Positions 9,538-10,642 are shown, counted from the first letter of the stretch. The stretch is DNA of 64,000 nucleotides from Escherichia coli (GCF_002854065.1 NZ_CP024147.1), one strand, 5' to 3'. Made by a program: numbers and translations. Notes: generated by a model not told the origin, from the letters alone.

Positions 9538-10642
9538 GTCATGCTCTCCGTATCCTTACAGGGTTAATGATTCGTATTAAGTCGTAGCCATCCGCATGGC
9601 TCCGGGCGATTCAGTCGGCGCACCAGGATGTACACTTCGGATGCGTTCTTGATGTAGTAAACAATCCGCTCATTCTGGTGTTAATGGAAACACCCGTAAA
9701 AAGCAGGAGGAATGCCAGTTATTGGCGAATTTACAATGCTGCCATCGGGGTGAGTTTCATGAAGATTATTATTTTTTTTACGCCTTGTATCATCGCGTTA
9801 AATAATAATTTCTTCCTGTGTTTCATAAAGTATATAGTTACAATTACTCGTGAATTTTATCGATAACTCGACGTTAGCCTTCAGCCAGAGAAAAATTAAC
9901 TCGCAAATTTTTTAATTTATCGTTAGGGGAATGGGTAAATTATATTCTCGACCCTAATTACAGGGTTCATCTGAAAACAGTGGCGTCTCATCTTATTACT
10001 TCTCTTTCTGTATTCATGTTAGTGGGTTTGTGATAATGTCATAGTAGAAAAATCGTGAGAAAAAACATTTATTAATTATCATCTTATTGATTTTTATGTG
10101 TTGGTGTTTGTGATGATTGATTTTCACGAGAATCTCTTACTTTGATTAAGATTTTTATTTTTTCTTATATTTAACGTTATTCAATGCGCGTCCTGCTACG
10201 TTTTATCGTGATTTAGAATTGTATGTAGCATTAGCCATAAAATGATATCACTGGGAATATAATAAGGGGAATTATAATTTTGGGGGATAATTAGGCACTA
10301 TCAAAAATCGCTCATTCCAGACTTAAATACACGTTTTCTCCTGTTTAGGTTGTGGGCAAAAAATTCGATGAGGAGATGAGGTATAATTTCATTCACAACC
10401 TTATCACTATCTATTAATAAGCAAAAAACAACGTTCTTTTGTGATACGACTAACTGAAAATTCAACCCTTCGGGGCACGCTGCAGCGAGTTTGTGGGCAC
10501 TAACATTCGTACAAGCTTCATCTGCCGGGCGAAACGTCAGCTAAATACCTTAAAATAATCGCTTTTTTCTCCGGATTTGATCTCCTCATTTTTACATTCC
10601 AACATCATTTTATAAACATTCCGCTTGTATTTTTCTTTAGCG

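Follow-up and report, generated by a model that had tools for sequence, protein, structure and literature searches.

The window analysed here is a stretch of 64 kb from the Escherichia coli chromosome, with the gene order rutA-rutR, putA, putP, a gene for a hypothetical protein of 442 amino acids, efeU, efeO and efeB. The gene putA occupies positions 2167-6129 on the minus strand, putP lies at 6552-8060 and efeU at 10719-11549. The gene between putP and efeU, referred to below as the accessory gene, is located at 8209-9537 on the minus strand (ECs_1262 in strain Sakai, O-island 46), and its product is annotated as a hypothetical protein. Its 3' end is separated from putP by a spacer (8062-8208). 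The homology shared with K-12 and B2 strains reaches up to 8061, and the spacer contains an inverted repeat with 21-nt arms (8095-8146) that is a possible bidirectional terminator. On the other side, the gap between the start codon of the accessory gene (9537, minus strand) and that of efeU (10719) covers 9538-10718, or 1,181 bp. This is the longest intergenic gap of the neighbourhood, followed by csgD-csgB (752 bp) and efeB-phoH (620 bp), as judged from the RefSeq annotation of a near-identical strain. Among the 40 records listed across the identity range, of 644 matching E. coli genomes, none has an annotated feature under the AT-rich stretch.

The GC content of 9538-10640 is 36.1%, against 49.4% for the window, and 9538-10590 is among the lowest-GC 2.5% of its 1-kb windows. 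The other two most AT-rich 1-kb windows within the 64 kb are the pgaA-dgcT and csgD-csgB regulatory regions. The AT-rich stretch of 1.1 kb without genes that had been described in a first-pass annotation therefore exists as described; its sole open reading frame (ORF) of at least 60 amino acids, at 9678-9866 on the plus strand, encodes 62 amino acids. The AT-richness is, however, uneven: it is concentrated in 706 bp (9761-10466) with 31.0% GC, while both ends (9538-9760 and 10467-10590) have about 47-48%.

On the basis of composition and conservation, the gap can be divided into successive blocks. The GC-normal block adjoining the accessory gene (9538-9760) is conserved and is probably the 5' leader and proximal promoter of this gene, on the minus strand. 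It is followed by a hypervariable core (9761-10210), which has 30-33% GC in every allele and carries two near-consensus matches to the high-affinity motif of H-NS (9854-9923). An AT-rich block (10211-10466; 32% GC) that occurs only in strains carrying the accessory gene is moderately conserved. Next to it, 10467-10590 is a diverged remnant of the ancestral efeU upstream region, oriented as efeU (plus) and also present in strains without the accessory gene, and 10591-10718 (plus) is the efeU promoter region common to all E. coli, with a Fur-box-like site at 10641-10659.

This last block is 96-99% identical to K-12 and B2 strains, and the Fur consensus is matched at 15 of 19 positions by CGTAATGATAATCGCTATC (10641-10659), in agreement with the initial view that the distal end of the stretch merges with the Fur-regulated efeU promoter. 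Judged by its homology, 10467-10718 as a whole is the ancestral efeU control region. The AT-rich tract next to it may conceivably affect efeU. Antisense to the efeU promoter and the Fur box, an ORF of 48 amino acids (10537-10683, minus strand) is intact in all ten alleles that were compared. It is probably open only through the conservation of the promoter block; a longer counterpart in a K-12-type strain (locus coordinates 1766-2068) is annotated as a hypothetical protein of 100 amino acids.

Some further features of the window can be mentioned. An ORF of 61-69 amino acids (6184-6393, plus strand) in the AT-rich divergent control region of putA and putP is annotated as a hypothetical protein in RefSeq genomes. 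Four copies of IS1 are located at 17159-17931, 24473-25242, 34940-35710 and 50888-51657. In CUWW06, the closest complete genome, pgaC/pgaA and csgD are disrupted by IS1, and past position 16,100 the window departs from CUWW06 through IS1-associated rearrangements.

Distribution and age of the accessory segment

The accessory gene and the AT-rich stretch form a segment carried by 643 of the 5,426 complete E. coli genomes (12%), including those of O157:H7 strains, and missing from the other 88%. Each carrier has a single copy, located between putP and efeU without exception. Where the segment is missing, the spacer between putP and efeU measures 542 bp (K-12), 665 bp (the group of strain 12089) or 219 bp (B2-type). 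High-identity homology to these three types ends at 8061 and restarts at 10591, and between these points more diverged similarity can be detected. Positions 10467-10505 are 82% identical to positions 135-173 of the K-12 spacer (z = 12 against shuffles), and 10554-10718 is 90% identical to the spacer of strain 12089. At the other end, 8178-8239, which takes in the final ten codons and the stop codon of the accessory gene, is 78% identical (E 5e-9) to positions 143-205 of the spacer in strain 12089. DNA that is found exclusively in carriers thus spans about 8240 to 10466.

The first-pass annotation had regarded the segment as an insertion and had proposed a comparison with strains lacking it. 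In this comparison, the 'empty' sites of these strains hold remnants of both of its ends. Furthermore, the synonymous divergence (dS) between distant alleles is 0.10 for the accessory gene, equal to that of its flanks (0.087 for putP and 0.096 for efeU). Therefore, the absence looks like a deletion. We infer that E. coli has long carried this segment and that most lineages lost it through deletion, as opposed to a few lineages having gained it by insertion.

Marks of a mobile element are lacking as well: no terminal direct or inverted repeats were found around the segment, there is one copy per genome and there is no clean empty site. Despite its restricted distribution, a source in phages, plasmids or other species was not found. 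There was no phage match, and the three plasmid matches were E. coli records either of chromosome size or wrongly assigned. Among species-representative genomes, a wobble-degenerate pattern of the N-terminus of the accessory protein matched once, in a metagenome-assembled genome (MAG) of Collinsella. The contig concerned (Collinsella sp., JAIJJM010000433.1, 2,806 bp) is 92.7% identical to 7956-10738 of the window and is mis-binned E. coli DNA. The polymorphism between putP and efeU is better explained by an old segment that was lost repeatedly than by one inserted (O-island 46) into O157:H7, which matters to those who use ECs1262 as a lineage marker.

The accessory gene and its promoter

The accessory gene is intact in all ten alleles, with a dN/dS of 0.4-0.5. 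Its product had been called an orphan, and a word-seeded search did return only E. coli sequences with at least 85% identity. An exhaustive HMMER scan of 1.84 billion representatives, however, yielded 49 relatives, so that the protein does have remote homologs. Its N-terminal domain is conserved, and its C-terminal part has three repeats of about 60 amino acids (residues ~235-430). Just before the first repeat, 15 bp (encoding QPEAD) are missing in frame at 8835 in the window allele and in strain GF3-3, while they are present in the other eight alleles. Tandem copies of the repeats are found in proteins as long as 2,136 amino acids, and repeat-bearing relatives comprise SET-domain proteins of Salmonella bongori and S. 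enterica subsp. indica, and proteins of Pantoea, Rouxiella and Paraburkholderia. One Pantoea relative scores for SET, and for OTU below the cut-off of Pfam. In S. enterica subsp. indica, the gene of the SET protein adjoins genes for an NEL/LRR protein and for a second SET protein; the NEL/LRR architecture is known from type III effectors. Residues 28-163, the N-terminal domain, have relatives at 42-47% identity, among which is a second E. coli locus downstream of ygjK, and show a sub-threshold match to the N-terminal domain of the effector PipB2 (PipB2_N). An AlphaFold2 model is confident for the repeats only (pLDDT 75-95), and a Foldseek search of this model against the PDB returned nothing below E = 0.09. 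These relationships suggest a secreted, effector-like protein. The accessory gene is a more interesting object at this locus than the AT-rich stretch, and its membership of a repeat family with SET-domain, effector-like proteins raises the question of when the AT-rich promoter region becomes active.

In O157:H7 Sakai, ECs1262 is transcribed and rises about 2.5-fold upon entry into stationary phase, from a log2 expression index of -0.72 at 3 h to +0.60 at 6 h; the same data set assigns it to O-island 46 and places it with the O157-specific ORFs that respond significantly to growth phase (PMC2241611, Additional file 2). In a literature search we found no main-text discussion of ECs1262 beyond SNP typing, and nothing on O-island 46. 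Since the gene is transcribed, a working promoter must sit within the AT-rich stretch, as had been assumed at the outset. A GGAG Shine-Dalgarno motif can be read about 8-9 nt 5' of the ATG. For the promoter itself there are several candidate positions, among which it may be sought: two promoter-like pairs on the minus strand have conserved hexamers (9700-9672 and 9684-9656), and further candidates on this strand are found at 9793-9765 and 10304-10277. With a position weight matrix, promoter-like sites number 20.9 per kb in the stretch against 7.6 per kb in the window (2.8 times), but they are mostly unconserved. In a simple promoter scan, 8 sites were found against 5.3 +/- 2.6 in shuffled sequences, a density within what the base composition gives.

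A naturally occurring rearrangement touches the region immediately upstream. In the clinical isolate eco-241, an IS1 (2248-2945 of its locus) lies 14 bp upstream of the start of the accessory gene and replaces the equivalent of about 9550-10420, which amounts to a natural loss of nearly the whole AT-rich tract.

Variation and coding content of the stretch

Ten alleles with 89.7-100% identity were aligned, and differences per block were counted between the window and the most distant allele (S1CHI), with about 9% at synonymous sites as the neutral reference. The block adjoining the accessory gene has 1 difference in 123 positions (9538-9660) and then 3 in 100 (9661-9760). It seemed at first sight to be under strong purifying selection (4/223). 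The adjacent 100 codons are also low at synonymous sites (3/70), however, and the excess conservation of 9538-9760 is therefore insecure. At the other end of the gap, 10/124 positions differ in 10467-10590 and 1/128 in 10591-10718. Between the two lie 10211-10300 (8/90), and 10301-10466, which is more conserved than neutral (7/165 versus about 9%, p = 0.03).

The core (9761-10210) evolves at or above the neutral, synonymous rate. It differs at 14-16% of positions, with a divergence of 0.17 versus a dS of 0.10, and contains frameshifting indels, most of them of 1 bp. In its most variable 50-bp blocks, 27-36% of the columns vary among the ten alleles. Base changes in the core are balanced, with 35 from strong to weak (G/C to A/T) and 34 from weak to strong. 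The length of the stretch is 1,049-1,062 bp across the sampled genomes, a range of -4 to +9 bp among alleles differing by at least 10%. The core haplotypes are mosaic. Over the 160 bp of 10051-10210, the window allele, which is shared with strain C325, and that of O157 are about 12-22% different according to the alignment used, against at most 1.3% in the flanks; part of the 22% is a shift in the MAFFT alignment, and a better alignment gives about 12%. This patch is a mosaic or recombinant haplotype. A small inversion was considered for it and dismissed, the reverse-complement alignment scoring 32 and the forward one 290.

The first-pass annotation had tied its reading of the region to transcription across it and to conservation beyond neutral drift. 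The latter is missing from the core and present at both ends, and transcription has been shown for the accessory gene only.

It had been suggested that the stretch may hold small proteins, and the 62-amino acid ORF had been put forward as a possible gene. Such a product, for example a type I toxin-like peptide made from this hydrophobic ORF or from an internal ORF of 35 amino acids, has some appeal given the GGGGTGAG motif 5' of the internal ATG at 9759, but we consider it very improbable. Only 3 of 10 alleles have the 62-amino acid ORF intact; an 11-bp insertion interrupts it in the S1CHI allele and a 1-bp insertion in O157, where the internal ORF shifts frame after its seventh codon. Nor is the 62-amino acid ORF longer than chance allows: 1,000 dinucleotide shuffles of the stretch contained on average 1.16 ORFs of at least 60 amino acids, and in 65% of them the longest ORF had at least 62. 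The ORF content of the stretch is thus that of a random sequence of the same composition. Neither this ORF nor the other small ones have a significant match in Pfam, and the concatenated six-frame translation gave no match among 5.8 billion proteins at E<=10. No ORF of at least 30 amino acids in the segment-specific part is intact in all ten alleles; one of 54 amino acids (10301-10465, minus strand), for instance, is broken in three. The translated intergenic small ORFs of Sakai, determined in LB, BHI and under stress, include no entry with coordinates 1,323,200-1,324,399 (PMC5597208, S2 Table), which correspond to 9538 to about 10670 of the window, although these culture conditions may not induce the locus. 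A resemblance to a RelE/ParE-like toxin remnant on the minus strand (9566-9830, with the peptide ERIVYYIKNASEVYILV at 9566-9700) was a visual hunch only and was rejected, given that no toxin family in Pfam or NCBIfam matched at E<=10 and that the six-frame search was empty.

That the stretch encodes a small RNA missed by annotation, or a long, structured 5' leader of several hundred nucleotides that controls the accessory gene, is somewhat less implausible, although it still seems unlikely. It would fit with the conservation of 9538-9660 and 10301-10466 above the local background and with the presence of promoter-like sites on both strands, and it should be noted that Rfam is limited to families already described. 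Against it, a covariance-model scan of the kind proposed initially (Rfam 15, 7900-11000, both strands, E<=1) found no structured RNA, and no tRNA or tmRNA was detected in the stretch. No intrinsic terminator occurs in 9538-10640, the sole nearby match, at 10650, being the Fur-box palindrome in the efeU promoter block. Folding z-scores of 28 overlapping 150-nt tiles, taken over both strands, range from +1.3 to -2.4 (best -2.37), which is unremarkable for 28 tests. Furthermore, the conserved blocks are too invariant for covariation, and the indels of the core are incompatible with a conserved structure. A search for repeats or iterons yielded only short two-copy matches, as is typical of AT-rich DNA. 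The ideas of a gene in the 62-amino acid ORF, of a small RNA and of small proteins can thus be set aside for now.

Probable H-NS silencing and comparison with known systems

The stretch is real and has the look of a common type of regulatory spacer that evolves rapidly; it is probably a promoter region silenced by H-NS. H-NS prefers AT-rich DNA and suppresses spurious promoters (PMC3923964), and the regions bound by H-NS in EHEC Sakai are AT-rich, with a mean size of 1.6 kb (PMC4764244). With 31% GC over 706 bp versus 49.4% for the window, the tract has the AT content expected of such H-NS-bound regions. In addition, two sites with at most one mismatch from the H-NS motif TCGATAAATT are present 60 bp apart, ATTTTATCGA at 9854 and AATTTATCGT at 9914, where 0.23 are expected from shuffles and 0.13 per kb occur in the rest of the window. 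Composition and these two predicted motif matches make H-NS nucleation within the stretch plausible, as had been suggested as a possibility in the first-pass annotation.

The reading that we prefer, with a probability of roughly 60%, is that the stretch is non-coding, that its ends are the control regions of the flanking genes, and that its 706-bp middle acts as an H-NS-type silencing platform. The old, E. coli-specific segment has the arrangement putP / ECs_1262-like gene / AT-rich tract / efeU. According to this proposal, its geneless middle (9761-10466) would be a platform determined by base composition and not by specific sequence. H-NS, together with StpA and Hha, would polymerise on the 706-bp tract. 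The coating would keep both the promoter of the accessory gene and the internal promoter-like sites of the tract quiet, and silencing would be relieved, for example, upon entry into stationary phase. Occupancy of the tract by H-NS is thus a prediction of this scheme. In its favour, sequence turnover in the core goes along with a constant GC content and length. On the other hand, both H-NS motif matches are lost in S1CHI-type alleles, and in one clinical isolate IS1 has removed almost all of the tract. The accessory gene is measurably expressed in minimal medium, and therefore any silencing is partial. The body of the gene has 49% GC and is not AT-rich, and the segment is as old as its flanks; 'foreign DNA' is therefore not demonstrated.

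The main rival is that the AT-rich middle is functionless, neutral DNA, an eroded gene or a spacer at an AT-rich mutational equilibrium. It would persist since large deletions also tend to remove the adjoining promoters, and H-NS may coat it without consequence. This rival is to be taken seriously, even if it seems clearly the less probable of the two. It would lead one to expect that the core diverges at least as fast as synonymous sites and accumulates indels of 1 bp and of other sizes that are not multiples of three, as is observed. Neutral DNA that has reached its mutational equilibrium would equally show balanced substitutions and a constant GC content. In addition, neither the promoter-like sites nor the H-NS motifs are conserved, and the tract is missing from 88% of complete genomes and was lost through IS1 in one carrier. 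Against an eroded gene, no trace of a former protein is found even at E<=10. Moreover, length is held within narrow limits among divergent alleles, and 10301-10466 is more conserved than neutral DNA would be. Functionless DNA is compatible with binding by H-NS, and the two readings part only on whether this binding matters. A bolder alternative, which we hold to be doubtful, is that the 706-bp tract is a long-lived silencer or insulator constrained in composition and length only, or the host of a condition-specific transcript. In the former version, the tract would predate the diversification of E. coli, gate an effector-like gene with repeats of the SET-protein type and shield the efeU promoter, which is controlled by Fur and CpxR; in the latter, it would give rise to a long leader or small RNA that is not shown by standard laboratory data sets.

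If the preferred reading of an H-NS-type platform holds, the stretch alone matters little: it would be one more AT-rich, probably H-NS-coated control region beside a strain-variable gene, ordinary in kind. It resembles the H-NS-silenced upstream regions of accessory genes in E. coli and Salmonella, in which a long tract of low GC lies 5' of a strain-variable gene. As in regions subject to xenogeneic silencing, there are many promoter-like sites, near-consensus H-NS motifs and a gene that is induced on leaving exponential growth. The stretch would thus function like such a region. Unlike in them, the accessory gene has a GC-normal body, the segment is as old as its core flanks, and no donor could be identified for it.

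Promoter islands of E. coli K-12 are characterized by dense, overlapping promoter-like sites with little productive transcription. The stretch is similar to these in being an AT-rich intergenic tract that adjoins an accessory gene and has promoter-like sites at 2.8 times the density of the window. It differs from them in that the density of sites is no higher than base composition gives (8 versus 5.3 +/- 2.6). Closer at hand are the divergent regions csgD-csgB and pgaA-ycdT (dgcT), which are likewise intergenic and beside promoters and which, with 33-35% GC, are the sole comparable windows within the 64 kb. Those regions measure 590-750 bp and are conserved across E. coli, whereas the stretch upstream of the accessory gene extends over 1.18 kb, occurs in 12% of genomes and has a hypervariable core.
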